This document shows, piece after piece, positions 7,954 to 61,207 of a stretch of 64,000 nt of DNA. The notes under the pieces were generated by a model. It was not told where the DNA came from, did not search any database, and worked only from the letters and a program-made list of their open reading frames with translations. The stretch comes from Escherichia coli (GTDB lineage Bacteria; Pseudomonadota; Gammaproteobacteria; Enterobacterales; Enterobacteriaceae): NCBI RefSeq assembly GCF_003991155.1, contig NZ_CP031293.1; one strand, given 5' to 3'. The position numbers and the translations under genes are program-made. Position 1 is the first letter of the stretch. Each line of letters opens with the position of its first letter.

Positions 7954-8418
7954 ATGACTGATTACGCGATAAGCAAGAAAAGCAAGCGATCGCTTTGGAT
8001 CCCGATTCTGGTATTCATTACCCTCGCGGCCTGTGCCAGCGCAGGTTACAGCTACTGGCATTCGCATCAGGTTGCCGCTGAAGACAAAGCGCAGCAACGC
8101 GTCGTGCCCTCCCCGGTCTTCTATGCGCTGGATACCTTTACAGTCAATCTGGGCGATGCGGATCGCGTGCTTTATATCGGCATAACCCTGCGACTGAAAG
8201 ATGAAGCTACCCGCTCGCGGCTGAGTGAGTATTTGCCGGAAGTCCGTAGCCGTTTGCTGTTACTGTTTTCGCGTCAGGATGCTGCCGTACTGGCGACAGA
8301 AGAAGGCAAGAAAAACCTGATTGCCGAGATTAAAACCACACTTTCCACCCCGCTTGTTGCCGGGCAACCGAAACAGGATGTCACCGACGTGCTGTATACC
8401 GCTTTTATTCTGCGATAA
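7954..8418 (+). CDS. fliL: Flagellar basal body-associated protein FliL (154 aa)
   Basis: 154 aa with single N-terminal TM helix; first gene of fliLMNOPQR. Confidence 0.93.
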
Positions 8419-8422
8419 CGAC

Positions 8423-9427
8423 ATGGGCGATAGTATTCTTTCTCAAGCTGAAATTGATGCGCTGTTGAATGGTGACAGCGAAGTCAAAGACGAACCGACG
8501 GCCAGTGTTAGCGGCGATAGTGACATTCGTCCGTACGATCCGAATACCCAACGACGGGTTGTGCGCGAACGTTTGCAGGCGCTGGAAATCATTAATGAGC
8601 GCTTTGCCCGCCATTTTCGTATGGGGCTGTTCAACCTGCTGCGCCGTAGCCCGGATATTACCGTCGGGGCCATCCGCATTCAGCCGTACCATGAATTTGC
8701 CCGCAACCTGCCGGTGCCGACCAACCTGAACCTTATCCATCTGAAACCGCTGCGCGGCACAGGGCTGGTGGTGTTCTCACCGAGTCTGGTGTTTATCGCT
8801 GTGGATAACCTGTTTGGCGGCGATGGACGCTTCCCGACCAAAGTGGAAGGCCGCGAGTTTACCCATACAGAACAGCGCGTCATCAATCGCATGTTAAAGC
8901 TGGCGCTTGAAGGCTATAGCGACGCCTGGAAGGCGATTAATCCGCTGGAAGTTGAGTACGTGCGTTCGGAAATGCAGGTGAAATTTACCAATATCACCAC
9001 CTCGCCGAACGACATTGTGGTTAACACGCCGTTCCATGTGGAGATTGGCAACCTGACCGGCGAATTTAATATCTGCCTGCCATTCAGCATGATCGAGCCG
9101 CTACGGGAATTGTTGGTTAACCCGCCGCTGGAAAACTCGCGTAATGAAGATCAGAACTGGCGCGATAACCTGGTGCGCCAGGTGCAGCATTCACAGCTGG
9201 AACTGGTGGCCAACTTTGCCGATATCTCGCTACGCCTGTCGCAGATTTTAAAACTGAAACCCGGCGACGTCCTGCCGATAGAAAAACCCGATCGCATCAT
9301 CGCCCATGTTGACGGCGTCCCGGTGCTGACCAGTCAGTACGGCACCCTCAACGGTCAGTATGCGTTACGGATAGAACATTTGATTAACCCGATTTTAAAT
9401 TCTCTGAACGAGGAACAGCCCAAATGA
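8423..9427 (+). CDS. fliM: Flagellar motor switch protein FliM (334 aa)
   Basis: ORF 8321..9427 trimmed to MGDSILSQAEIDALL start (334 aa), right after fliL stop. Confidence 0.93.
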   Translation: MGDSILSQAEIDALLNGDSEVKDEPTASVSGDSDIRPYDPNTQRRVVRERLQALEIINERFARHFRMGLFNLLRRSPDITVGAIRIQPYHEFARNLPVPTNLNLIHLKPLRGTGLVVFSPSLVFIAVDNLFGGDGRFPTKVEGREFTHTEQRVINRMLKLALEGYSDAWKAINPLEVEYVRSEMQVKFTNITTSPNDIVVNTPFHVEIGNLTGEFNICLPFSMIEPLRELLVNPPLENSRNEDQNWRDNLVRQVQHSQLELVANFADISLRLSQILKLKPGDVLPIEKPDRIIAHVDGVPVLTSQYGTLNGQYALRIEHLINPILNSLNEEQPK

Positions 9428-40438: not shown

Positions 40439-41011
40439 ATGACAATGGAAATACTTACAGCAATTCTTGTTATCATTACAGGAATTTATGCATTTTTGAC
40501 ATACAAGATGTCGAGAATAAGCGAACGAACAGCTCAGATAATGAATGAGCAAACCGAGGCAATGTCTCGTCCTTATATAATAATCCAGCCAATGGTAAGA
40601 CCTCACTCGCAATTCCTATACCTGAAAATTTATAATAGCGGTAAGACACCAGCCTTGAATGTAAAATTAGAATTAGATAAGGATTTTTATCAGTTCGATG
40701 AACCAACTAAAAACCTAAAAGAAACAAGTGTTTTTACATCAACTATTGATAGCTTAGCGCCCAATCAAGAGTTATTCTTCGCCCTTGGTCAAGGTTGGGT
40801 TATTTTTGGAGAATCCAAAAACCCTTTACCACAACAATTTACAATAACTGCAACGTATAGTTATATGAATAAAGAAGTTGTTGAAAAAAACAATATAGAC
40901 TTAAGCCCTTTCATGCAAAGTGAAGGTGAGAAAAATCCTATTGTTGAAGAGCTTGAAAGAATAAGAAAAACTCAAGAAAAATTGATGAAGGTATCTAACA
41001 AATCGATATAA
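40439..41011 (+). CDS. Hypothetical membrane-anchored protein (190 aa)
   Basis: N-terminal hydrophobic helix ILTAILVIITGIYAFL then soluble domain; RBS AGGAG upstream. Confidence 0.55.
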   Translation: MTMEILTAILVIITGIYAFLTYKMSRISERTAQIMNEQTEAMSRPYIIIQPMVRPHSQFLYLKIYNSGKTPALNVKLELDKDFYQFDEPTKNLKETSVFTSTIDSLAPNQELFFALGQGWVIFGESKNPLPQQFTITATYSYMNKEVVEKNNIDLSPFMQSEGEKNPIVEELERIRKTQEKLMKVSNKSI

Positions 41012-41104: not shown

Positions 41105-41635
41105 TTAGTTAGCTTTCCAACCATTACTGGTCTTAACTAAATTCATGGCACTATCAGCAGGTTCATTCATCCCTTTAACGCTGGCGAAGGCTTTTTTGTC
41201 AATCCAGCCCGGAACGTCAACCAGCTTCCACGTATAAGTCACGCGAACTACTTTCTGATTACCGTTTCCCGGCTCAGTCCATTCCTTAATCTCGTCAACA
41301 GCACGACGACCAACACAGGCACCGTCTGTTGTGCTCCAGACTTTGGCTTTTTTGCCTTCCTCTGTTATCCCTAATACATTCGAATCATAACCCTGCTCAA
41401 AAACCATCAGGCCCTGCTCAATAAAACCATCGAGGATCACTGAATTCGTCCCTGTGCCAGTCGAATCAAGTCGTGGCTTGGCAAGACAGATGGGGAAGCT
41501 GGTGTTATTGTTATCCAGCGAGAAGCAGTATTTGTCTTGCCCAATCTTGGCATTAATCGCTTTCTCAAACTCACCTTTCTCACCACATCCCGCCAGTGTC
41601 AGAGTTGCGCCTACAACGAGTAAAATCTTCTTCAT
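41105..41635 (-). CDS. Lipoprotein (lipobox LAGC)
   Basis: MKKILLVVGATLTLAGC signal/lipobox; ORF 41105..41659 trimmed to Met9. Confidence 0.6.
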   Translation of the reverse strand: MKKILLVVGATLTLAGCGEKGEFEKAINAKIGQDKYCFSLDNNNTSFPICLAKPRLDSTGTGTNSVILDGFIEQGLMVFEQGYDSNVLGITEEGKKAKVWSTTDGACVGRRAVDEIKEWTEPGNGNQKVVRVTYTWKLVDVPGWIDKKAFASVKGMNEPADSAMNLVKTSNGWKAN

Positions 41636-42054
41636 CTGCTTATCCATCCTGATAATCAAAATTGCGTATGTTTTTTGACCTAATCCGGTCAGGGCTAGAG
41701 TTGTTGCGGGATCCGGCTGATATCACATGGCAAAATCACCGCTTAACCAATTGATAGGATTCAATTCTTTTTGAGGCTCGTCATATCGTTTAAAACGATC
41801 AAAAACAACCATATGATAGTTTTTAACTATCATAAATTGATATTCGATCGATTATAACAATTAATAACCGATCGATATCGCGATTTCAATCGTTATAATC
41901 TATCAATAACTCATTATCGATCTTTTATATCGATCATTATTTCAAGTTCTGATAGCCTTGCAACGCCGAGACCGACGCCATGAGTTTGGTGCAGTAGGAC
42001 GTATAAAACGAAGCAAAGCTCTGTGAGCGGGTTCAGTCTCTTTAACTCATTTAC

Positions 42055-42543
42055 ATGGAGGAAGTAAGAGTGGAAGCAACAAGTATCGTTTTTTTAGTGG
42101 TGCTCTTCGTCATTATCATGACCGCAGCAGTTATACAGAAGAAAAAGCACTACAACAGCTTTACGGAAGTTCTGGACGGCGACATTATTTCGTATGAATG
42201 CCAGCAGACAGGTATTGTAATTGATACTCAAAAACATACTGTCCGTATTTTCAATAAAGATAAAGACAGCACATATACTTTTGATGAAATCCGGGAAATA
42301 AATTATACGCTTTCAGAGGGTGGTAAGTTTTACGGCAATGGAACATTACGAGGTATGAATAATGCGGCTATTGCTAACTGGAGAGAACAACTTTCAGCGA
42401 ATAAACGGTCTGGCCTAAATATTTTAACCGATGATATTAAAAATCCCATGTGGAAAGTTAATGTTCCCCTGAAAAATAAAAGCACTTCAAATCACGAACT
42501 TTGTGAGCGATGGATGCTGGTATTTAAAAAGTATGTTTTCTGA
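42055..42543 (+). CDS. Hypothetical membrane-anchored protein (162 aa)
   Basis: N-terminal TM segment SIVFLVVLFVIIMTAAVI; RBS GGAGGAAG upstream. Confidence 0.55.
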   Translation: MEEVRVEATSIVFLVVLFVIIMTAAVIQKKKHYNSFTEVLDGDIISYECQQTGIVIDTQKHTVRIFNKDKDSTYTFDEIREINYTLSEGGKFYGNGTLRGMNNAAIANWREQLSANKRSGLNILTDDIKNPMWKVNVPLKNKSTSNHELCERWMLVFKKYVF

Positions 42544-42574
42544 GTCTCACCTTTCATCTATTTATGGAACAAAA

Positions 42575-42952
42575 ATGAAAAAATTATTACTTGCTATTTT
42601 TATCATATTACCACTTGGTGGCTGTACGGTTCATGGTAATAAATCCCTAACTGATGAAAATCATCAAACGGTTAAATTAAAAATCGTCAAGGGGAAAACT
42701 ACCCAACAAGAAATTCTTGCTGCCTTTGGAGAGCCTCAGACACGCGCTACGAATGATGGGCAGGAGATGTGGAACTACTCAAGTATGACGGGAGAAAGCC
42801 AACTATCTAACTACATACCGGGCCTTGCTCTATTGACCAATAGCAGCACGGCACACATTAAATCACTGGATATCTGGTTTAAGGGTGATGTTGTGGAACG
42901 TTATGATTTTCGTCAGACTGCAAGTAAGACATCTCGTGGCCTGCTTGATTAA
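42575..42952 (+). CDS. Small lipoprotein (about 125 aa)
   Basis: MKKLLLAIFIILPLGGC lipobox; ORF 42503..42952 trimmed. Confidence 0.6.
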   Translation: MKKLLLAIFIILPLGGCTVHGNKSLTDENHQTVKLKIVKGKTTQQEILAAFGEPQTRATNDGQEMWNYSSMTGESQLSNYIPGLALLTNSSTAHIKSLDIWFKGDVVERYDFRQTASKTSRGLLD

Positions 42953-43001
42953 TATGTGTATATATAGGCCACAAATAGTTGTGGCCCTTTTCCGTTATCA
43001 T

Positions 43002-43613
43002 CTATTTTTGTTTATATAAATCGTAGGAACTTAATTTTTTAGATTTCTCATAGGCATTTTCAATGTATAAAGATACATCTGCTAAAAATCGGTCTTCTTC
43101 TATCAATGAAATATAAGAACCAGTCAATTGATCATATGATTTGCACTCAGGGCAACAATATTTATCTTCTGAAGTTAAATTAAACCTATTATTATTAATA
43201 ATGTCATATAGTTCAGTTGTGTCAATAGTTCTTGATGAACATCCATCAGGCTTGATTGAAGAAGATACTAACCAGTCATAGCTATTATTAACCTTCATTA
43301 TCACACCAACAATGCCATTAGTTCGGGAAGTGGTTCCTCCTCTCTTGTATTCTTTCAATGCATATTCAATTTCCCAGTCAATCCATTTACTTTTAATCAT
43401 ATTCGGGGAAATAATAACGATTAAAACAGATGTCCCGAAAATCATATTTTTAAGATTGTTCTTTATATTATCTACTGTTGTATTACTTATATCAGGAGAC
43501 TCCGATGTTTCCCCTTTATAGTAAACAGCATCATCACCTAATGCCTTGACAATTTTGTCTCTTAAATCCTGTGCTTCACTATATTTATATGATATGAATG
43601 TTTCATGAGCCAT
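43002..43613 (-). CDS. thsB: Thoeris ThsB, TIR-domain protein (203 aa)
   Basis: N-terminal FISYKYSEA... TIR-like beginning, about 200 aa, immediately downstream of SIR2-SLOG gene. Confidence 0.75.
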   Translation of the reverse strand: MAHETFISYKYSEAQDLRDKIVKALGDDAVYYKGETSESPDISNTTVDNIKNNLKNMIFGTSVLIVIISPNMIKSKWIDWEIEYALKEYKRGGTTSRTNGIVGVIMKVNNSYDWLVSSSIKPDGCSSRTIDTTELYDIINNNRFNLTSEDKYCCPECKSYDQLTGSYISLIEEDRFLADVSLYIENAYEKSKKLSSYDLYKQK

Positions 43614-43629
43614 AACTTCACCTAATATA

Positions 43630-45066
43630 TTATTTATTCAGTTTGTTTATGATTTTTATTACAACTTCTATTGTTTTTTTTACCGAAAAATCTTTTTCAG
43701 TAAGCTCAGACAAATCATTATATATCCATTCATTACTTCCATAATATTTCTTAGGATCTTGTGATATTTGTTCAAATATATATTTAGACATATACCCGGT
43801 ATTGGGTAAAGGAATTGGTACAAGGCCATGTTGAACAGCAATCTCAAACTCTCTAAATACTCCCCTAGCATTTACTATATCATTATTTTCCTCTTGTTTA
43901 TTTCCAAAAATAAACAATGCAATACCACCAAGAGGAATCATTCTCTGTCTATACTCCTCCCAAAGTTCTTGAATATCTTTCCCCTTACTGACAGTTTGTG
44001 GAAATGGTCTAACAATGAGCTGTTCTTCTGATAATTTATCTGGCCTACTATAAATTGCATCCAACGCACCATTTATCACAGAACTTCCGACGCCCCATCC
44101 AAATCCATTCACTATCCTATAATTATTCTTTATAATCTCATATGCTAATGTGTGAATAAAATCTAATGCTTTAGGTCTTTCAAGATCCCCATATTTTTCT
44201 GCACTACCAGAAATAAATATCGTTTTCTTTTTAAATGATTGCTCTATCTTAGCTAGAATTTTAGGGATGTCAGAATATTCATCTATTAATAATACTTGTA
44301 TACCAAATCTCTTGAGATCATCGATTCGCAGTTTTTGTTTTCTGATCTTATAATTTACTGTTTCTTCATCATCTAGGGAATTATTAGCCTCATTCTTCAT
44401 AAAGCAATAGTGTGTCCTCTTGTCCCCAGAATGAGTATACAAACGACTCAAAATGTAATCCAGATTTGGGTCGGTAAAACTAAACCCTATGAATAGAAAG
44501 GTTTTTGATATTAAATCTCCGCTAAGTGCGGTGATAAATGAAGCGTGTGTTCTGTAGTATTTTTCATACTGCTCTTTATATAAAATAGCCTTGGATGGGG
44601 ACGAAATATCACCATGCATTTTATATACTATCGCGTCTCGCTTAGGTCGTGTTGTATTTAAATCATCTATGTTTCTTTTTACATCTGCAATTTTGTAAAC
44701 TTTCCGCAGACTATCTTCAATTAAAGTGTCATAGTTTGTTGTCCAAAATGTCTTAATCGGTAAACGAGCAATTATATTATGAACCTCTGATGGCTCGGCT
44801 TGCTCAGAAAACTCTTCGATTATCTTCCTTGTGAGTTTTGTAGCCCCTTTCTTTTCATTAACATGAAATTGAGCAAGCGATATTAGATCGTCTTCTTTAT
44901 TAATGTCTAAACTAAGCTCTTCTGCTATATCGCTAAGTAATTCTTTCCAATCAACATAACCTTGACTTTTAGACATTCCTGCGCCAGAAAAAATAGCAGC
45001 ACAATCATTTTCAAGATCTTTAACAAAATCTTTTATGAAAACTTCAATTTCATTACTAAACGTCAT
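43630..45066 (-). CDS. thsA: Thoeris ThsA, SIR2-SLOG NADase effector (478 aa)
   Basis: N-terminal SIR2-like motifs (FSGAGMS, TTNYD, MHGD) and C-terminal SLOG-like glycine-rich region (FISGSAEKYG...GFGWGVGSSVINGALD); start set at MTFSNEIEV with GGAG RBS. Confidence 0.8.
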   Translation of the reverse strand: MTFSNEIEVFIKDFVKDLENDCAAIFSGAGMSKSQGYVDWKELLSDIAEELSLDINKEDDLISLAQFHVNEKKGATKLTRKIIEEFSEQAEPSEVHNIIARLPIKTFWTTNYDTLIEDSLRKVYKIADVKRNIDDLNTTRPKRDAIVYKMHGDISSPSKAILYKEQYEKYYRTHASFITALSGDLISKTFLFIGFSFTDPNLDYILSRLYTHSGDKRTHYCFMKNEANNSLDDEETVNYKIRKQKLRIDDLKRFGIQVLLIDEYSDIPKILAKIEQSFKKKTIFISGSAEKYGDLERPKALDFIHTLAYEIIKNNYRIVNGFGWGVGSSVINGALDAIYSRPDKLSEEQLIVRPFPQTVSKGKDIQELWEEYRQRMIPLGGIALFIFGNKQEENNDIVNARGVFREFEIAVQHGLVPIPLPNTGYMSKYIFEQISQDPKKYYGSNEWIYNDLSELTEKDFSVKKTIEVVIKIINKLNK

Positions 45067-45274
45067 TACACTTATCTCCATTTTAACTATTATTCCCAAA
45101 AGTAGAGAATAAACCTTTCAACCGGAGTTCATGAAACAGCATCTAAAAATATTCTGCCGGATACGAGTAAAATCATACTGGATATAAAAACAGTTGTCGA
45201 GAACTAAAACAATTGAAAACATGGCCAGATGGCATAGATAATATTACATACGAAAATTATTAACCAGATAATAT

Positions 45275-46237
45275 TCACGATGGTGATGTTTCATCGGACA
45301 TCCTTACATTATAAAGAAAAACCAGATGCATATTTACATCATTTCTTTTCTTAAAATAGCTATAACGCTGGAGGCTCAGCCATTTTGATGTTGCCAATAC
45401 GTATGGGCAGCCCTCCTTCCTGCTGGCACAACTTCTTAATGGATTGCCACTCCGCTTTTCAGACTCCATGTGAGAAGTGAGCGAATCAAAAGCACCGTCG
45501 GCTACGACGATGGTAGGTTCTTCATCTGTTTCATTGCCGATCGACTCCGTATTTGTGCTTTCAGCACGTTCTTCTTCCAGTTCAGCCAGACTCGCTTTCA
45601 GCTCATCAAGGCTGCTGGCTGCGTCTTTTGGTGCATAGAAGAACAGCCCGCTAATGAAGATGGCTTCCATAACCTCTCTAAAAGAAAACGAGGTATCGCC
45701 ATAAACAAAGCAACTGTGCTTGGAACTCTTCACACCCGATACGTTTTTCTTCAGCAAACCGTCTTTCGGTGAAGTCATTAATGTCTGTTTGCTATAGAGG
45801 ATTACAGGAAGATTTTTAATTTGTTGAACATCGCCGCTGATACTCCAGCGTTCTTTATCTCCTTTGATAAAGCCGGAAGCATCACAGCTACTTTCTATGT
45901 CAAACTCATCAGTCGGGAAGCGCTCGCGATTAAAATAGGTCGAAAAATCCTCCCCTTCTTCCATATCCTGACGCTTGTAAGCGCGATAAACCGAGCTTCG
46001 ACGGTCAATTCCGATCCATTCAATATCCCATGCCGTTGGCCCGGACGGTTTTCTTACCTCATCTATATAAGCACCAACATCTCTGTCCAGATAAGCTGCT
46101 AACAAAGCCTTCCATGGTTCTATTGCCAGAAAGATACTTGCCAGCGTTGTTCCTTCTTCAATCAGAACGGTATGGTGGAAGAACCGGAGAAGAAAGAACG
46201 GATCGGTATTGGCTATGACGTTCTGGATGGATAGCAA
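45275..46237 (-). CDS. Hypothetical protein (320 aa), co-oriented immediately upstream of thsA
   Basis: Long ORF with higher GC than neighbours; acidic central segment; no family recognised. Confidence 0.5.
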   Translation of the reverse strand: MLSIQNVIANTDPFFLLRFFHHTVLIEEGTTLASIFLAIEPWKALLAAYLDRDVGAYIDEVRKPSGPTAWDIEWIGIDRRSSVYRAYKRQDMEEGEDFSTYFNRERFPTDEFDIESSCDASGFIKGDKERWSISGDVQQIKNLPVILYSKQTLMTSPKDGLLKKNVSGVKSSKHSCFVYGDTSFSFREVMEAIFISGLFFYAPKDAASSLDELKASLAELEEERAESTNTESIGNETDEEPTIVVADGAFDSLTSHMESEKRSGNPLRSCASRKEGCPYVLATSKWLSLQRYSYFKKRNDVNMHLVFLYNVRMSDETSPS

Positions 46238-51311: not shown

Positions 51312-51530
51312 TTATGCAGCGTTCTGGCGTGAGTTTCGAATAGTCGTTTCAATCCATTCATCAATCTCACTTTCAACAAAAGCAACACACCTCGGACCTA
51401 TTTTTACTCTGTCAGGAAAGTTTCCTTCCTTAATACGCTCATATAAAGTCGTGCGACTGAATCCCACTCGATTTAAAACATCAGGAACGCGGATAAATCG
51501 TTTTACGCTGGTTTCAATATTTTCTTTCAT
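51312..51530 (-). CDS. alpA: AlpA-family phage/island transcriptional regulator (excisionase-like HTH), about 72 aa
   Basis: KRFIRVPDVLNRVGFSRTTLYERIKEGNFPDRVKIGPRCVAFVESEIDEWI matches the AlpA/MerR-like HTH pattern; start trimmed to MKENIET. Confidence 0.75.
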   Translation of the reverse strand: MKENIETSVKRFIRVPDVLNRVGFSRTTLYERIKEGNFPDRVKIGPRCVAFVESEIDEWIETTIRNSRQNAA

Positions 51531-52860: not shown

Positions 52861-52950
52861 TGGCGGAGAGAGGGGGATTTGAACCCCCGGTAGAGTTGCC
52901 CCTACTCCGGTTTTCGAGACCGGTCCGTTCAGCCGCTCCGGCATCTCTCC
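52861..52950 (-). tRNA. serU: tRNA-Ser (anticodon CGA)
   Basis: Reverse complement GGAGAGATGCCGGAGCGGCTGAACGGACCGGTCTCGAAAACCGG...GGTTCAAATCCCCCTCTCTCCGCCA has long variable arm and CGA anticodon. Confidence 0.92.
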
Positions 52951-53941: not shown

Positions 53942-54017
53942 TCCTCTGTAGTTCAGTCGGTAGAACGGCGGACTGTTAATCCGTATGTCACTGGTTCGAG
54001 TCCAGTCAGAGGAGCCA
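53942..54017 (+). tRNA. asnT: tRNA-Asn (anticodon GTT)
   Basis: TCCTCTGTAGTTCAGTCGGTAGAACGGCGGACTGTTAATCCGTATGTCACTGGTTCGAGTCCAGTCAGAGGAGCCA, 76 nt. Confidence 0.93.
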
Positions 54018-54183
54018 AATTTTAGTCTTGAGACATCTCTATAAGTCTCAGGATAGTTAAAAAACAAGAACTTATCTTTACCCGGTTGTCTCGCAAGAGG
54101 CTGCTGGGTTTCTTGACATCCATAGTTTTTAGGGGCCTAATCAGGGGCCTCACGGTTCGGTGAGCAAACGGAGCCCCCACGCT

Positions 54184-55446
54184 ATGGCATTAACAGACAC
54201 CGCTATTCGCAAGACTAAACCCTCTGACAAACCCTTCAAAATGACGGACAGTTCTGGACTGTACCTGTTGATCAAACCTAACGGCTCAAAACTCTGGTAT
54301 ATGAAGTACCGCATCGACGGCAAAGAGAAGAAACTGGCCTTTGGCCCCTACCCGGAGATCTCCCTGTTGCAGGCTCGCCGCCTGCGCGAAACAGCACGCA
54401 ATAACATTCATGCAGGCGTCGATCCGGCTGCGGTGAAGCAAACCGAGAAACAGAAGAGGAAAAACGGGCAGACGTTCAGCCAGATCGCCATCAACTGGCA
54501 TAGCGAGCATAAACGCTGGTCTGAGCATTACGCGAAAACGGTTATGCGCAGGCTGGAAATGTACGTTTTCCCGGATATCGGGGATCGCCTTATCGAGGAG
54601 ATCGAAACGGAGGATTTGTTATTCACGTTGCGCAAGGTAGAGAGTAAAGGCTTTCTGGAAATCACCGCGCGGCTGAAAAACTACGTCACCGATATCATGC
54701 ACTACGCGATGAAAAAGAAACTGCTCAAAGCGAACCCGGCGCTGTATCTGGACGGTGAGTTTGCCGCGCCAGAAACCAGTCACTACCCGGCCCTGTCGCT
54801 GGATAAGTTGCCTGAGCTTTTATCCCGGACAGAGAATTACTGCGGCAGGCTGCTGACGAAATACGCCCTCAAACTTTCGCTGCTGTTTTTCGTGCGCTCC
54901 AGCGAGCTACGTTTTGCCCGCTGGAGTGAAATCGACTGGCAGCAAAAACTGTGGGTGATCCCGGAAGAACGCGAGCAGATCGAAAACGTGCGCTTCTCTT
55001 ACCGGGGGGCGAAAATGAAAATCCAGCACATTGTGCCGCTGTCGGATCAGGCGATTGCGATACTGAAGCAGATCGAGGCCCTCTCCGGGCATCTGGCCTT
55101 TATTTTTCCCGGCGAATACGACCAGAACAAGTGCATGAGCGACAACACCGTCAACAAGGCGCTGCGCGTGATGGGTTACGACACCAAAAAGGATATCTGC
55201 GGGCATGGCTTCCGGGCAATGGCCTGTAGTGCGCTGAGCGAATCGGGATTATGGAGCAAAGAAGCCATTGAAAAGCAGATGAGCCACCAGGAAAGAAACA
55301 GCGTCCGTGCTGCCTATATTCACAAGGCTGAATATCTGGAGGAACGGATCGAGATGATGCAGTGGTGGTCAGATTATCTTGATGCAAACAGTGACGGGTA
55401 TGTCTCGGCTTACCAGTATGCCCGCCGCCTAAAACAGGCGTCGTAA
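54184..55446 (+). CDS. P4-like tyrosine integrase of asnT-associated island
   Basis: MALTDTAIRKTKPSDKPFKMTDSSGLYLLIKPNGSKLWYMKYR N-terminus typical of P4-family integrases; directly downstream of the tRNA 3' end. Confidence 0.9.
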   Translation: MALTDTAIRKTKPSDKPFKMTDSSGLYLLIKPNGSKLWYMKYRIDGKEKKLAFGPYPEISLLQARRLRETARNNIHAGVDPAAVKQTEKQKRKNGQTFSQIAINWHSEHKRWSEHYAKTVMRRLEMYVFPDIGDRLIEEIETEDLLFTLRKVESKGFLEITARLKNYVTDIMHYAMKKKLLKANPALYLDGEFAAPETSHYPALSLDKLPELLSRTENYCGRLLTKYALKLSLLFFVRSSELRFARWSEIDWQQKLWVIPEEREQIENVRFSYRGAKMKIQHIVPLSDQAIAILKQIEALSGHLAFIFPGEYDQNKCMSDNTVNKALRVMGYDTKKDICGHGFRAMACSALSESGLWSKEAIEKQMSHQERNSVRAAYIHKAEYLEERIEMMQWWSDYLDANSDGYVSAYQYARRLKQAS

Positions 55447-55569
55447 GTTAACAAAGCATCAGAGGGGGAAAAGGTATATTCCCCCTTTGTGCGTTTCAAA
55501 TGTCGATGCTGACTGTAGCTTTTAAACTAAATTACTGGATAAAAAGTAGCTTTTAAGCTACTATCTTTT

Positions 55570-55743
55570 ATGAAAACGATAAAGACCTACATAACTGCCG
55601 ACGGGCGAGATCTGTATGCAGAGTTTTTTAAAGGGTTACGCAACCCCATCGCGAAGGCAACGATCGCTTCCCGGATCAACCGGATGGCTTCGGACAATTT
55701 TGGCGACCATAAGCCCTGCCGGGAAGGTGTCTGGGAACTGTAG
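55570..55743 (+). pseudogene. Addiction-module killer-type toxin gene (RelE/ParE superfamily), 3'-truncated by IS insertion
   Basis: MKTIKTYITADGRDLYAEFFKGLRNPIAKATIASRINRMASDNFGDHKPCREGVWEL then stop inside the IS left end. Confidence 0.6.
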
Positions 55744-55746
55744 TGG

Positions 55747-57709
<1,963 letters not shown>

Positions 57710-57988
57710 ATCTCGTTCTCCTTCATAACATTCCAGATTCCAGAGGTACTTCGTGCTGCTATAACGTACCCGACAACCGGAACACCGGGACAGACAATGG
57801 ATGCGGTATTCGGTTATAAAACGGTATATATTTAAATAGTGAACACCATGAGCGTAATATATTTATTTGATGAATGTATTGATGAAAGGAAAATTGCTTT
57901 TTAGCTATTATCGGCGGGTGTATAATTTAGTCCGTTTTTTTCAAATAAATAATCGCAAATAGCATCTGATGCCACTGAGGACGCAGGT

Positions 57989-58780
57989 ATGAATTTCAGA
58001 CCAGCAGTATATTTATGTGCAGCAACATTTTTACTGGCTGGCTGTGCGCCACGCTCCCCCATTGATGCGAAGAAAACGGGCGCATCCGCCAAAGAGAGCA
58101 GCATCAGCAAAAACACAACGGCACAACTGACCGATAAAGATATTTTTGGCAATGAAACCACGCTGGCAGTTTCTGAGGAAGATATTCAGGCAGCACTGGA
58201 AGGCGAAGCGTTCCGCGTGCCGCTGAATTCACCCGTGATTCTGGTTCAATCCGGTAGCCGCGCACCGGAGGCCATGATGCAGCAGGAAATGAGTAAATAT
58301 TATACCGTTGCCACATTCTCCGGTATCCCGGACAGACAAAAACCTGTGACCTGTAACAAAGACAAAAACAAAGATAAAAGCGAGAACCAGGATGTTGCTG
58401 TTGTTGAGAATATGAACTGGATGCAGGCACTGCGTTTTGTGGCTGCAAAAGGACATCAGAAATCGATTATTGTTTACCAGGATACGTTGCAGACAGGAAA
58501 ATATGACTCTGCGCTGAAATCAACAGTGTGGTCAGATTATAAAAATCAAAAACTAACTGACACAATGTCATTACGTTTTTTGGTTCGCTTCACTCTGGTG
58601 GATGTGGCAACTGGCGAGTGGGCTACCTGGTCACCTGTAAATTATGAGTCCAGAGTTATCTTCCCTCAGACTGAAAAAAAGGGTGCAATCACTACCGATG
58701 TGACAGAGCAACAAATCACCCAGCTTAAGCAGAAAACATACGCAGCAATGACCAGGGATCTGGTGAACCGCTATCAGTAA
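57989..58780 (+). CDS. Lipoprotein (263 aa)
   Basis: Signal/lipobox FLLAGCAP; Lys/Asp-rich central region. Confidence 0.6.
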
Positions 58781-58988
58781 GCAACATCCCCCTTACCTGC
58801 CGCTAATAAATAGTGGCGGCAGGCACTGGCACGAAAAACTCCCTGATGCTGACGATTATTAAACATCTTTCTGGTATTTTCTGTTGCAAACCATCCCATT
58901 CATAGCATATCAGTATCCATCATTTTAAATTTACAGTGATTGTATGCCTCAAAGCTAATCGCTTCCGATGATGGTGCCCGCAATAAAT

Positions 58989-59288
58989 TTAATCGGAATC
59001 GTCTTCTGTATCCTCCTCATATGAATCCCTGACGGTCCCCAGTTTTGTATTGCCATTGGCAGGCGTCCCATCTCCCATCAGAACGTCGATGTCATAGCCA
59101 GGATATTGTTTCTTTATATTGCGTTTGAACTCTGAGACCGTCGAATCATTTTTGGACATTTTCACCCGCTGATATTGTGGCATATCTTTTTTATCACCCC
59201 GGACGTCCTTACCATCGGGTGTTTTGAAGCGAACATCAAATCCCTGTACATCCCAGATTTTCTTTTCAACATTTTTTACTAATGGCAT
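58989..59288 (-). CDS. Hypothetical small protein (99 aa) downstream of hcp
   Basis: ORF with acidic C-terminal tail. Confidence 0.45.
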   Translation of the reverse strand: MPLVKNVEKKIWDVQGFDVRFKTPDGKDVRGDKKDMPQYQRVKMSKNDSTVSEFKRNIKKQYPGYDIDVLMGDGTPANGNTKLGTVRDSYEEDTEDDSD

Positions 59289-59340
59289 TTTTATTCTCTC
59301 TTCAGAAAATTACACTAAATCAAAAAAAGTATCGCTATTC

Positions 59341-59820
59341 TTAATAGAGTCTCTCTTCCCATAAGCTATATGCACTGGTTCCTGCAACACAGTGCTCCTG
59401 AGTAATACTTTCATAGGTGAATGATATGGCCTCTTCTGGTTGTCCCTGGCTATTGTTGACAGTGTGCGGCACAATATGCTTTATGCTGGCAATGCGGGCG
59501 TTAATCAGCTTCACTTTGAAATACAGCTCGTTAATACCAAAACGGTTGGTGCGGTAATACTCAAAATCACAGGTCAGACACTCATTTTCGCTGATAGCCT
59601 TACTCAACAAAGGGGAAGATTTATCCACGGGTTTCTGAATAATGAGCGCTTGATGATTCACGTTTTGTGCACGGGTTAATCCGTGGCTGAGTCCCAGCAC
59701 CATGATCTGATCCATATGCGCAATCTGCGCTTTGTTCCCAATAGATGCCAGTGATGAACAGCCTGCGGAGATCAGCCCCTGGAGATCGCCGTTCAGTGTC
59801 AGGTAAACAGGATTTGCCAT
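59341..59820 (-). CDS. hcp: Type VI secretion system tube protein Hcp (159 aa)
   Basis: MANPVYLTLNGDLQG...KPVDKSSPLL...ISFTYESITQEH pattern characteristic of the Hcp family. Confidence 0.8.
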   Translation of the reverse strand: MANPVYLTLNGDLQGLISAGCSSLASIGNKAQIAHMDQIMVLGLSHGLTRAQNVNHQALIIQKPVDKSSPLLSKAISENECLTCDFEYYRTNRFGINELYFKVKLINARIASIKHIVPHTVNNSQGQPEEAISFTYESITQEHCVAGTSAYSLWEERLY

Positions 59821-59841
59821 ATTAAGCTCCTTGGTCCGGGG

Positions 59842-61197
59842 TTATTTCCCGACCCCTTTATCAATAATTGCCGTTTCCGGTAGAGAGTGATTTTTCAGCA
59901 ACAACCAGCGACTTAACACGCCGTCCAGCCGCTCGTTAATCTGTTTTTCCAGTACGTCGGTATTCTGCCCCTGCGCACGGGCGTCCTGGTACTGCGTCAG
60001 CAGCGACTCAACGGGTGTTTCCTGCCCCAGCCCCCGCTCCGCCTGCCAGATAACATTTTTGATGTAGGAAAGGGTTACCCCCTCTTTCTCACGTTTCATC
60101 ACGAGGTCTGCAAAGGCATGTAAGTCCTGGCGGGCCTGTAACCAGCCGCGTAACTGTGGACTACTCTGCGCACGAGTTTTCAGCGTCTCATTCCACTGTG
60201 CGGTGGCCTGCTGCTGTTGCAGACTCTCCGGCCAGCGGCTGTCGGCGGTACGCGCCATCTGTAAGCCCGTATTCAGCGGCTGAACAGGTGAAGCATCAAG
60301 GAGTTGCTGTAGCCTGCGCTCATAGTTTTCCAGCTCAGGCGACACAAGCCAGACTGTCGCAGCGCCCTGCGCGGTATCGCTGACCTGGGTGAGTTGTTGC
60401 TGCATGGGAGAGACCAGCCACCACCAGAGAGCGGCGGCAACAGCCCCGGAGCAGAGAACACCCGCGATAAAACCTTTCACCGCACTGCCCTGCTTTGCCA
60501 CACTGGTCGGTGGCGTACTGTCAGCCAGGCTGCGCACCTCCACCTTCATCTCCGGCAGTTCAGGCAGCGGCGGCATCACCGTTTCGGTTGCTGGCGTAAT
60601 ACCGTTTTCCGGGGCATAAATCAGCGTTCTGACCGTGGTCTGTGCGGTGTGTTCAACGCTGCTTTTCGGCTGCGGCTCAAGTCGTTTACGCGTGTTCTGA
60701 ACAAAATAAAGCAGGTTTTCCACGCGCGGCTGGCGCTTCAGTTCCACCTGCTGGAGCTTGTCACAGATAAGCTGTAGTGCCCGTTCCGTGCGATATAACA
60801 GAGGCAGGTCAGCCTCCACAAAGGATATCTGCTGGCGCAGGATATTCCCGGTGCGGGTGTTGAACCAGTCCAGCATCTCGGTCCGCGCCGGGCCGCCCTG
60901 CGGCCAGAAGTTATCCCACTCGTGAGTGACCATCGCCGCCAGCAATTCCGCCCCTTCGCAGAATCCCGCCAGCCCCTGTGTCCGGGTCCGGGCCAGCGTG
61001 TAGTAGGTGGCGGTATGCAAATCCACCCCGTTGGCCTTAAATATCGCCAGCGCCAGCGACTCCACCAGTTTCCAGTTCAGCTCCGGCTGCGACGGGTGGC
61101 TGGCCTTGTTGATTTCCTCGCGGATGGCGCTGAACTCTGGCAGGCCACGCGGGTCACTGCCGGTAACGATAGTTTGTGTCAGTACGTTATTGCTCAT
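59842..61197 (-). CDS. Type VI secretion TssA/VasL-family protein (ImpA N-terminal domain with internal TM segment)
   Basis: N-terminal ImpA-like region (DPRGLPEFSAIREEINK...NWKLV...LLAAMVTHEWDNFWPQ), hydrophobic segment FIAGVLCSGAVAAALWWWLV; start set at MSNNVLTQ with GAGGAG RBS just after tssM stop. Confidence 0.7.
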   Translation of the reverse strand: MSNNVLTQTIVTGSDPRGLPEFSAIREEINKASHPSQPELNWKLVESLALAIFKANGVDLHTATYYTLARTRTQGLAGFCEGAELLAAMVTHEWDNFWPQGGPARTEMLDWFNTRTGNILRQQISFVEADLPLLYRTERALQLICDKLQQVELKRQPRVENLLYFVQNTRKRLEPQPKSSVEHTAQTTVRTLIYAPENGITPATETVMPPLPELPEMKVEVRSLADSTPPTSVAKQGSAVKGFIAGVLCSGAVAAALWWWLVSPMQQQLTQVSDTAQGAATVWLVSPELENYERRLQQLLDASPVQPLNTGLQMARTADSRWPESLQQQQATAQWNETLKTRAQSSPQLRGWLQARQDLHAFADLVMKREKEGVTLSYIKNVIWQAERGLGQETPVESLLTQYQDARAQGQNTDVLEKQINERLDGVLSRWLLLKNHSLPETAIIDKGVGK

Positions 61198-61207
61198 CCC
61201 TGTCTCC

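Follow-up and report, generated by a model that had tools for sequence, protein, structure and literature searches.

What do three small genes beside a Thoeris defence system contribute to the Escherichia coli island that carries them, and how is their expression set? They lie in a 64,000-nucleotide stretch of E. coli chromosome (contig NZ_CP031293.1, hereafter the window; 99.9% identical to many complete genomes), where gene A, on the minus strand, diverges from genes B and C on the plus strand. The original prediction had read them as a minus-strand LAGC lipoprotein, a 162-amino-acid (aa) protein with a single transmembrane (TM) helix and a small plus-strand lipoprotein, set between a mobA-side cassette and thsB, and had proposed superinfection exclusion or receptor masking at the envelope as their task. 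All three open reading frames (ORFs) are present as described, and so is their position between the relaxase with its two-gene cassette (38338-41011) and thsB (43002-43613). The gap between A and B holds a conserved non-coding element that we regard, from its sequence and with moderate confidence, as a candidate Dam-sensitive switch of the LysR type, and the triad itself is almost certainly a backbone module of the island that is unrelated to Thoeris. The parts of the locus are:

41105-41635, minus strand: gene A, LAGC lipoprotein of 176 aa with Gly at +2; orthologue of SEN1982
41744-41942, no strand: control element, non-coding, 200 bp, between the divergent genes A and B
42070-42543 (alternative start 42055), plus strand: gene B, DUF4755 protein with one N-terminal TM helix; orthologue of SEN1983
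42575-42952, plus strand: gene C, LGGC lipoprotein of 125 aa with Thr at +2; orthologue of SEN1984
42967-42996, plus strand: hairpin resembling a terminator, T-rich in its tail, in the gap where C and thsB converge

A conserved array of half-sites and GATC sites between genes A and B

The element lies in the 420-bp gap between A and B and is 76-81% identical across island types, at distances where the coding sequence of C is 67-72% identical and its synonymous sites are saturated. A pattern search through one genome per species recovered it in 23 further Enterobacterales species, and 29 distinct versions, 66-90% identical overall to that of the window, were compared. In the species loci it always stands between A and (B)C, in the same orientation and directly upstream of (B)C. 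The literature searched on DUF4755, on SEN1983, and on ROD21 in combination with origin of transfer (oriT) or GATC/Dam, yielded no prior description of it. Within the element are five 15-nt dyads of the LysR/OxyR type T-N11-A, scored here out of 10 against the OxyR half-site consensus ATAGnTnnnAnCTAT, and five GATC sites:

H1, 41785-41799, ATCGTTTAAAACGAT: 8/10, GATC over the right end (41797)
H2, 41816-41830, ATAGTTTTTAACTAT: 10/10, no GATC
H3, 41847-41861, ATCGATTATAACAAT: 8/10, GATC over the left end (41846)
GATC beyond the half-sites, 41870: invariant
H4, 41889-41903, ATCGTTATAATCTAT: 9/10, no GATC, a perfect TATAAT inside
H5, 41920-41934, ATCTTTTATATCGAT: 7/10, flanked by GATC at 41919 and 41932, 13 bp apart

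The half-sites follow one another at 31, 31, 42 and 31 bp, and those that bear GATC (H1, H3 and H5) alternate with those that are free of it (H2 and H4). T-N11-A is kept at all five positions in 29/29 versions, with the limit that H1 formed part of the search pattern for the 23 loci and is conserved there by construction. Every one of the 29 versions has a GATC over H1, H3 and H5, as against 0/29 for H2 and 1/29 for H4, and the four GATC sites outside the search pattern are retained in 29/29, 29/29, 28/29 and 29/29. Five GATC sites within 139 bp compare with a background of one per 281 bp. No other place in the 64-kb window matches the OxyR half-site at 10/10 as H2 does, and across the 29/29 versions H2 reaches 9-10/10; matches of at least 8/10 number 30 in the window, four of them inside a 150-bp stretch of the element.

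Resemblance to proven Dam/OxyR switches

A blastn search of the element against 50,697 phage genomes led to the intergenic stretch that immediately precedes gtrA in P22-like phages. The gtr switch of P22 contains three OxyR half-sites, of which the outer two hold GATC pairs 13 bp apart and the middle one holds none (PMC2909390). In the P22-like phage SE1 these half-sites lie at 2462, 2494 and 2526, 32 bp apart, and score 8, 9 and 8 of 10. Local alignment of the element with the gtr switch scored 48, as against 19.2 ± 2.8 for 1000 shuffles (maximum 33) and a maximum of 31 for 354 real windows from the same island, and H5 equals the OxyR(C) half-site of SE1 at 14/15 positions. The element aligns to the A-B-C unit of gtr in two registers, one through H1-H2-H3 and the other from 41862 through H4-H5, and for this reason looks like a doubled unit of the gtr type. 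A similar result was obtained with the regulatory region of K-12 agn43, for which the local alignment scored 44 (shuffles 19 ± 2.8, maximum 35). As a negative control, about 55 distinct regions upstream of phage C genes contained neither a GATC pair 13 bp apart nor a half-site of at least 9/10.

Genes A, B and C and their products

The longest ORF for gene A is 41105-41659 on the minus strand, and the conserved start is the ATG at 41635, from which the N-terminus reads MKKILLVVGATLTLAG and then CGEK. For gene C the longest ORF is 42503-42952 and the conserved start is the ATG at 42575, with the N-terminus MKKLLLAIFIILPLGG and then CTVH. Gene B encodes 162 aa from 42055 and 157 aa from the RefSeq start, the GTG at 42070; the latter is favoured because of the RefSeq call and the GGAGG found 8 nt before it. 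Ratios of nonsynonymous to synonymous substitution (dN/dS) of 0.04-0.23 against orthologues, with dS up to 1.7, revealed purifying selection on A, B and C, and homologue clusters number from tens to hundreds per gene, so that the three are genuine genes and not chance ORFs. RefSeq names them "SEN1982 family lipoprotein", "DUF4755 domain-containing protein" and "SEN1984 family lipoprotein", respectively; with these names and as genes of ROD21, the triad is already catalogued. Its families are tied to mobile elements (Enterobacteriaceae-associated ROD21-like, or EARL, islands and ssrA islands, 613 plasmids for A-like genes, temperate phages for C-like genes) and are not widespread core envelope proteins.

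The lipobox signals of A (LAGC followed by G) and C (LGGC followed by T) are consistent with the envelope location that had been proposed for these two. Protein A is a predicted lipoprotein of the outer-membrane type, as its lipobox LAGC is not followed by Asp at +2; Leu, Gly and Cys of the lipobox are invariant among 26 aligned homologues, and the Pfam model LPAM_1 matches at 20.4 bits. Cys37 and Cys107 are at least 90% conserved in the same alignment, which is consistent with a periplasmic location. The modelled fold of A is cystatin/NTF2-like, and its best structural neighbours are protein protease inhibitors. Phages yielded no homologue of A by tblastn, and Foldseek against BFVD gave no match at E ≤ 0.001. 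On plasmids, homologues at 25-48% identity were found on 613, of which 486 are typed conjugative; in an IncX4 backbone, for example, the A homologue directly follows topB-hha-hns. The public name "LptM family lipoprotein" is a mislabel, because the matches to the LptM models are confined to residues 1-21, the signal peptide, and stay below the cut-offs (NF047847, 17.7 vs 27.7; PF13627, 16.8 vs 27.3). The names "type VI secretion immunity lipoprotein" and SA0632 were likewise rejected, the similarity being to the signal peptide only. A 183-aa paralogue of A occurs in other EARL-type islands, and its clade (clusters P0044, P0069, P0084 and others; 8001-8552 in island L011) is widely mislabelled "DNA-directed RNA polymerase subunit beta".

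Protein B is where the proposed envelope location requires amendment, since it is membrane-anchored with a domain predicted to be cytoplasmic and not surface-exposed. Pfam PF15947 (DUF4755) matches residues 44-158 at 53 bits (cut-off 27), and residues ~35-162 form a PH-like fold of a seven-stranded bent sheet capped by a C-terminal helix, with PH, PTB or FERM-F3 domains as structural neighbours. The motif KKKH follows the TM helix, and distant homologues have two TM helices or none; on both grounds B should be anchored in the inner membrane with its PH-like domain predicted in the cytoplasm and not exported, a prediction that would correct the old "exported protein" label. A sequence search of PDB with the B profile returned nothing, and tblastn against phages detected no homologue of B. 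A B-C pair that appeared to be present in Klebsiella phage RAH1 was discarded, as the 157-aa gene upstream there is DUF2335 and not DUF4755. Islands that lack B showed no convincing small ORF in its place.

Protein C, also a predicted outer-membrane-type lipoprotein (LGGC, Thr at +2; Leu and Cys of the lipobox invariant in alignments), is the best conserved of the triad, with 73-78% identity where A has ~52% and B ~56%, and with dN/dS of 0.04-0.12. A kinship of C to BamE (SmpA/OmlA) is probable but weak: Pfam BamE (PF04355) reaches 14.7 bits on C (E 0.026), below the gathering score of 23.2, and 24.2, 22.7 and 21.8 bits on phage homologues, while hhalign against E. coli BamE gave a probability of 36%. 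A published Phyre2 analysis matched SEN1984 to BamE at 99.7% confidence (PMC10655114). C matches phrog_3135 at 2e-33 and has homologues in seven GenBank phages and 75 phage-like IMG/VR contigs. On at least 48 of these 75 contigs, which represent several immunity types, the C-like gene follows cI at a distance of no more than 2.5 kb and in the same orientation, and on 12 it lies just before the tape-measure gene. Phage lambda keeps rexAB in the slot next to cI, and C-like phage genes are therefore probably expressed in lysogens; their position provides circumstantial support for a role of C in exclusion or lysogenic conversion. Three named candidates for C were rejected, as their matches did not extend beyond the N-terminal region: Cor (PHROG, E 0.029, residues 1-20), Llp (PDB, E 0.17, residues 1-29) and TrsH (NCBIfam, residues 1-34, the signal peptide).

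A ROD21-like island inserted in serU

In Salmonella, the island ROD21 carries SEN1982, SEN1983 and SEN1984, to which A, B and C of E. coli are respectively orthologous. The published order in S. Enteritidis is SEN1980 (MobA, 1521 bp), SEN1981, SEN1981A, SEN1982 (lipoprotein), SEN1983 (pseudogene), SEN1984 (378 bp), SEN1985 (methyltransferase) and SEN1986 (963 bp) (PMC3198454). The Salmonella locus L043, which encodes a protein 95% identical to A, agrees with it in order and sizes: MobA (506 aa), DUF2971, an 87-aa product, A (176), B (157), C (125) and a 320-aa gene. Hallmarks of the EARL family of mobilizable islands, whose founding member is ROD21, are genes for type IV pilin/PilV, a TraD/MobA relaxase and an H-NS homologue (PMC6035254). 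A P4-type tyrosine integrase and an AlpA-type RDF towards opposite ends are further family traits. In the island of the window (~21.9 kb, low GC), the 22 kb around the triad carry a backbone of integrase, pilV, a bfpA-like pilin, TraD, MobQ, a RepL-like protein, DUF4756, H-NS homologues and an AlpA-type regulator; in a 99.9% identical record both a full-length and a short H-NS gene are annotated. A 14-bp direct repeat, TGGCGGAGAGAGGG, stands at 30925-30938 and at 52861-52874, the latter copy being the 3' end of the tRNA-Ser gene serU, and no second copy of the Asn-tRNA 3' end was found in the window. The EARL family is defined by insertion at Asn-tRNA and the repeat here is the serU 3' end, so this island is inserted in serU and its attachment site is a different one. 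Immediately beyond tRNA-Asn (53942-54017), in the region 53942-64000, a second island starts, for which the 99.9% identical record shows an integrase of its own, a RelE/ParE toxin gene that is truncated, an IS3 element, YafT and the type VI secretion genes for Hcp, a VasL-domain protein and TssM. The remaining features of the first island that matter here are:

31103-32323: P4-type tyrosine integrase, at one end of the island, far from the intact tRNA
38338-39819: MobA/MobL (MobQ) relaxase gene, Pfam MobA_MobL
38338-41011: relaxase with the two-gene cassette, left neighbours of the triad
39898-40380: slot 1 gene of 160 aa, weak YunG match, phrog_26734
40439-41011: slot 1 gene for a single-TM DUF8453 protein, phrog_9607
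43002-43613: thsB, ThsB (TIR) of type I Thoeris, by Pfam and PADLOC
43630-45099: thsA, ThsA (SIR2 with SLOG/STALD) of type I Thoeris, by Pfam and PADLOC
45275-46237: SEN1986 homologue, intact 320-aa ORF without Pfam match, right edge of slot 2
~51315-51530: AlpA-like helix-turn-helix protein at the opposite end, 52% identical to the AlpA (Pfam Phage_AlpA) of another island

A fixed frame between two exchangeable cargo slots

The type I assignment of the neighbouring Thoeris block holds by both Pfam and PADLOC; what does not hold is that its proximity to the triad is meaningful, as the triad belongs to the backbone, whereas Thoeris is cargo for which many alternatives exist. Some part of the triad is present in 547/5426 complete E. 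coli genomes and the whole of it in 329/5426, always on the chromosome, with pathogens and the strain Nissle 1917 among the carriers. A query across the junction of C and thsB found C in 393 genomes, of which 48 continue into Thoeris; in ~345 of the 393 the similarity ends at the stop codon of C. On the grounds of this break and of the absence of any PADLOC match for A, B or C, a functional link between triad and Thoeris was rejected. The order of the triad recurs across island relatives in a frame that runs MobQ, slot 1, (SEN1981A), A diverging from B and C, slot 2, SEN1986, and that was found in Nissle 1917, strain R1, ROD21, Dickeya, Pectobacterium, Yersinia and others. Because this frame recurs with exchangeable contents in slots 1 and 2, the triad is a fixed spacer between two cargo hotspots, and the hairpin at 42967-42996 marks the place where the B-C operon ends and slot 2 begins on its left side.

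Slot 1 of strain R1 contains PDC-S49 and that of another relative a retron-type reverse transcriptase. In Nissle 1917 (L008, 6118-8655) it contains TcpC, a TIR-domain ThsB-like gene and a macro-domain ThsA-like gene (PADLOC 7e-91 and 4e-128 for the latter two), which places the virulence factor TcpC inside or beside a Thoeris-like cassette. Slot 2, occupied by Thoeris in the window, contains a ComEA-like protein, Lamassu LmuA/LmuB, DUF4238-Pers, an AriA-like ATPase or the SEN1985 methyltransferase in relatives. The pair of 160-aa and DUF8453 genes in slot 1 of the window also follows mobQ in a Yersinia aleksiciae island (L041, 2655-3776) and is thus a conserved two-gene cassette, without PADLOC match, in a slot that otherwise holds defence systems. 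The SEN1986 homologue, intact here, is annotated as frameshifted in the near-identical strain WW2.

The contents of the frame itself also vary. Some islands have A alone. E. coli islands inserted at ssrA (L013-L016, beside smpB/ssrA) have MobA, the element, B and C in direct succession and no A; they are integrase/MobA islands of a different kind, and a gene for a 1522-aa protein without Pfam match lies downstream of their AlpA gene. In Y. aleksiciae (L041, 3905-4795) two unrelated lipoproteins, of 95 aa with LLSGC and 195 aa with ALSGC, occupy the SEN1981A/A position beside the candidate switch element, and the downstream side lacks C. An exchange of lipoprotein genes at that position is thereby suggested.

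Proposed working of the module and competing explanations

Taken jointly, we lean towards a conserved backbone envelope module of ROD21-like islands under a Dam/OxyR-type switch. A would be transcribed leftward and B-C rightward from the 200-bp control region, where OxyR or a similar LysR-type protein would compete with Dam at the GATC-bearing half-sites; alternative occupancy would create heritable methylation patterns and, through them, ON and OFF states of the A and (B)C units. For B-C we predict a transcription start near 41965, 33 bp beyond the last GATC, the distance seen in gtr too. ON cells would carry A as a cystatin-like and C as a BamE/BLIP-like lipoprotein, both periplasm-facing and of folds that bind proteins, joined, where B is present, by an inner-membrane-tethered cytoplasmic PH-like protein. 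This island and the ssrA island have only Int, AlpA, MobA, B and C in common, which points to a host-encoded protein as the one that would bind the element. Our leading guess is that the ON state is a costly change of the envelope that would block incoming phage or DNA or alter the interaction with the host. Gtr and OpvAB modulate phage susceptibility at a fitness cost, opvAB trading phage resistance against virulence, and a costly envelope function such as exclusion would fit on that account. We infer OxyR binding, Dam dependence and ON/OFF behaviour, and an exclusion-type function, the last of which we consider doubtful. The furthest-reaching version, an unrecognised Dam/OxyR phase-variable locus on mobilizable islands of at least 20 Enterobacterales species whose ON state remodels the envelope by means of the BamE-like and cystatin-like lipoproteins and excludes phages or incoming DNA, appears unlikely.

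Several observations weigh against the switch and the module as proposed. The OxyR consensus matches are moderate at H3 (7-8/10) and H5 (6-8/10), a sixth site (41858) is poor and interrupted by indels, and H3 and H4 are 42 bp apart. The element has one GATC pair where gtr has two, with single GATC sites at H1 and H3. Boxes of the form T-N11-A are generic for LysR-type regulators, and the binding protein may therefore not be OxyR. Nor are A, B and C an obligate unit, because S. Enteritidis has B only as a pseudogene and 15 of the 23 species loci have A and C without it. Among characterised exclusion proteins (Cor, Llp, TraT, TrbK and others), none is homologous to A, B or C. Finally, work on ROD21 ties SEN1982 transcription to the excision state and does not mention phase variation (PMC6968874).

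The explanation first offered for the locus, namely dedicated superinfection-exclusion or receptor-masking proteins that complement Thoeris in a defence island, with lipoproteins that would stop phage entry by binding an outer-membrane receptor or an injection component, survives best among the competitors, and we rate it as possible but rather doubtful. The neighbourhood of cI, where at least 48 of 75 phage contigs carry the C-like gene, is the classical slot for lysogen exclusion, although cI-adjacent genes include fitness and virulence morons too. Unrelated lipoproteins at the A position of the Yersinia island are the replacement expected of diversifying functions, and defence systems fill both neighbouring slots, yet Thoeris itself adjoins in only 48/393 genomes. 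Further against it are the lack of a PADLOC match, a similarity to Cor and Llp that is limited to the signal peptide, the lack of phage homologues for A and B, and the cytoplasmic domain of B.

A role in island mobilization, either as an entry/surface exclusion pair like traS-traT of F, which would prevent carrier cells from taking up the island a second time, or as an aid to mating contacts through PilV/pilin, is improbable. The module always accompanies a MobA/MobL relaxase, the ssrA island has the direct order MobA, element, B, C, A-like genes are found on the 613 plasmids mentioned above (486 typed conjugative, with the IncX4 backbone as an example), and ROD21 transfers by conjugation (PMC3976249). 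Exclusion systems are, however, normally matched to a type IV secretion system, of which these islands have none of their own; phages, in which conjugation plays no part, commonly have C homologues; most islands lack B; and neither in sequence nor in fold was a similarity to TraT, TraS, TrbK or Eex detected, the TrsH match being to the signal peptide.

We assign a similarly low probability to host-interaction or virulence factors, that is, inhibitor-like lipoproteins directed against host proteases, lysozyme or complement in the manner of Ecotin, MliC and TraT/Bor, with A cast as cystatin/latexin-like and C as BLIP/BamE-like. A transposon screen found SEN1982 to be needed for colonisation of mouse liver and spleen, and the gene is transcribed (PMC6968874, PMC10655114), but several other ROD21 genes scored in the same screen, and the effect may be island-level or polar. 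That protease inhibitors are the best structural neighbours of A and that carriers include pathogens and Nissle 1917 would agree with such a role, whereas the equal conservation of the module in the plant-associated Dickeya, Pectobacterium and Brenneria speaks against it.

Least probable is that the element is a cis site for DNA transactions (an oriT, an iteron origin for the RepL-like protein, or a hairpin for single-strand initiation or promotion): repeats and palindromes are densely arrayed in it, it folds as single-stranded DNA better than shuffles (z -4.7 and -4.4) and shares GATC clusters with origins, but the folding is equally good on either strand, as palindromic operators would show, with short palindromes for stems; in both island types the relaxase genes are preceded by a classical inverted repeat of the MOBQ type and a GTGCGCCC-like motif after it (~38195-38235 in the window); the ssrA island has the element in common but no RepL-like gene; and the element is always directly upstream of (B)C in the same orientation and resembles two proven transcriptional switches. 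An RNA element was rejected, as Rfam gave no match except a chance one at E 0.77. The inverted repeat just mentioned is a candidate MOBQ-type oriT in its own right: it lies ~110-140 bp upstream of mobQ and reads CACTGC-GTA-GCAGTG followed by TGTGGGGTC, with ACATTC-TTCG-GAATGT followed by GTGCGCCCC at the equivalent place of the ssrA island. The 500 bp upstream of mobQ are 72-91% conserved among EARL islands, and no published oriT for ROD21 was found in the literature.

Implications

For island reading and cargo finding, the triad is useful as it stands, since it marks the fixed frame of ROD21-like islands on either side of which defence systems are swapped. What is added to the catalogued genes is a testable prediction, that of Dam/OxyR-type epigenetic ON/OFF control for a widespread island backbone module. 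To our knowledge few loci of the Dam/OxyR type have been recognised (agn43, gtr, opvAB, std and pap), all of which change the surface of the cell, several of them at a trade-off between phage resistance and virulence. If the prediction is true, it could explain the heterogeneous, excision-linked virulence phenotypes reported for ROD21 and would give a handle on the function of these lipoproteins, whose family is frequent beside cI in lambdoid prophages. If, in addition, the ON state excludes phages or incoming DNA, island immunity would be layered and heterogeneous, with an epigenetic bet-hedging switch placed in the backbone between two hotspots of intracellular defence.

Comparison with known systems

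The nearest analogues of B and C as a pair are TraS/TraT of F and Imm/Sp of T4, two-gene exclusion pairs. The analogy consists in a gene for a small inner-membrane protein followed by one for an envelope lipoprotein on a mobile element; no sequence or fold relation was detected, and the soluble domain of B is cytoplasmic and PH-like. C resembles BamE as a small lipoprotein of the outer-membrane type whose family gives borderline to significant Pfam BamE matches, and differs from it in being encoded on mobile elements and not a housekeeping BAM subunit, with a score for C itself below the Pfam cut-off.

As a whole, the locus compares most directly with ROD21, with which it shares the same three genes in order and orientation between the MobQ side and the SEN1986 homologue, as well as the backbone of pilV, pilin, TraD, MobQ, RepL-like, DUF4756, H-NS and AlpA genes. 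The differences are the host and insertion site (Salmonella and Asn-tRNA there, E. coli and serU here), the cargo of slot 2 (SEN1985 methyltransferase there, Thoeris here) and slot 1 (SEN1981 and SEN1981A there, the 160-aa and DUF8453 pair here), and SEN1983, which is annotated as a pseudogene there whereas B is intact here.

As to the element, Ag43, Gtr and OpvAB, known members of the regulatory class, all modify the surface of the cell, and for gtr and opvAB, both envelope loci, Dam/OxyR phase variation is documented (PMC2909390, PMC4856963). The opvAB locus of Salmonella, with four OxyR sites and four GATC sites, is similar by description as a multi-site OxyR/GATC array over horizontally acquired envelope proteins (PMC4856963), although OpvA and OpvB are unrelated to A, B and C. 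The agn43 (flu) locus has a single OxyR repressor site (PMC2909390), whereas the element is an extended array; the sequence TTATCGATCnTTTATATCGATC within H5 and the ATCAATA motif that precedes it are common to the element and to the K-12 region bearing three GATC sites. The gtr switch has three half-sites to the five of the element, is not flanked by genes on both sides as the element is, and controls glycosyltransferase products and not lipoproteins with a PH-like protein. It is alike in the spacing of its half-sites (32 bp, 31 bp here), in the alternation of GATC-bearing and GATC-free half-sites, in the GATC pair 13 bp apart, which agn43 has as well, and in its place upstream of horizontally acquired envelope genes.

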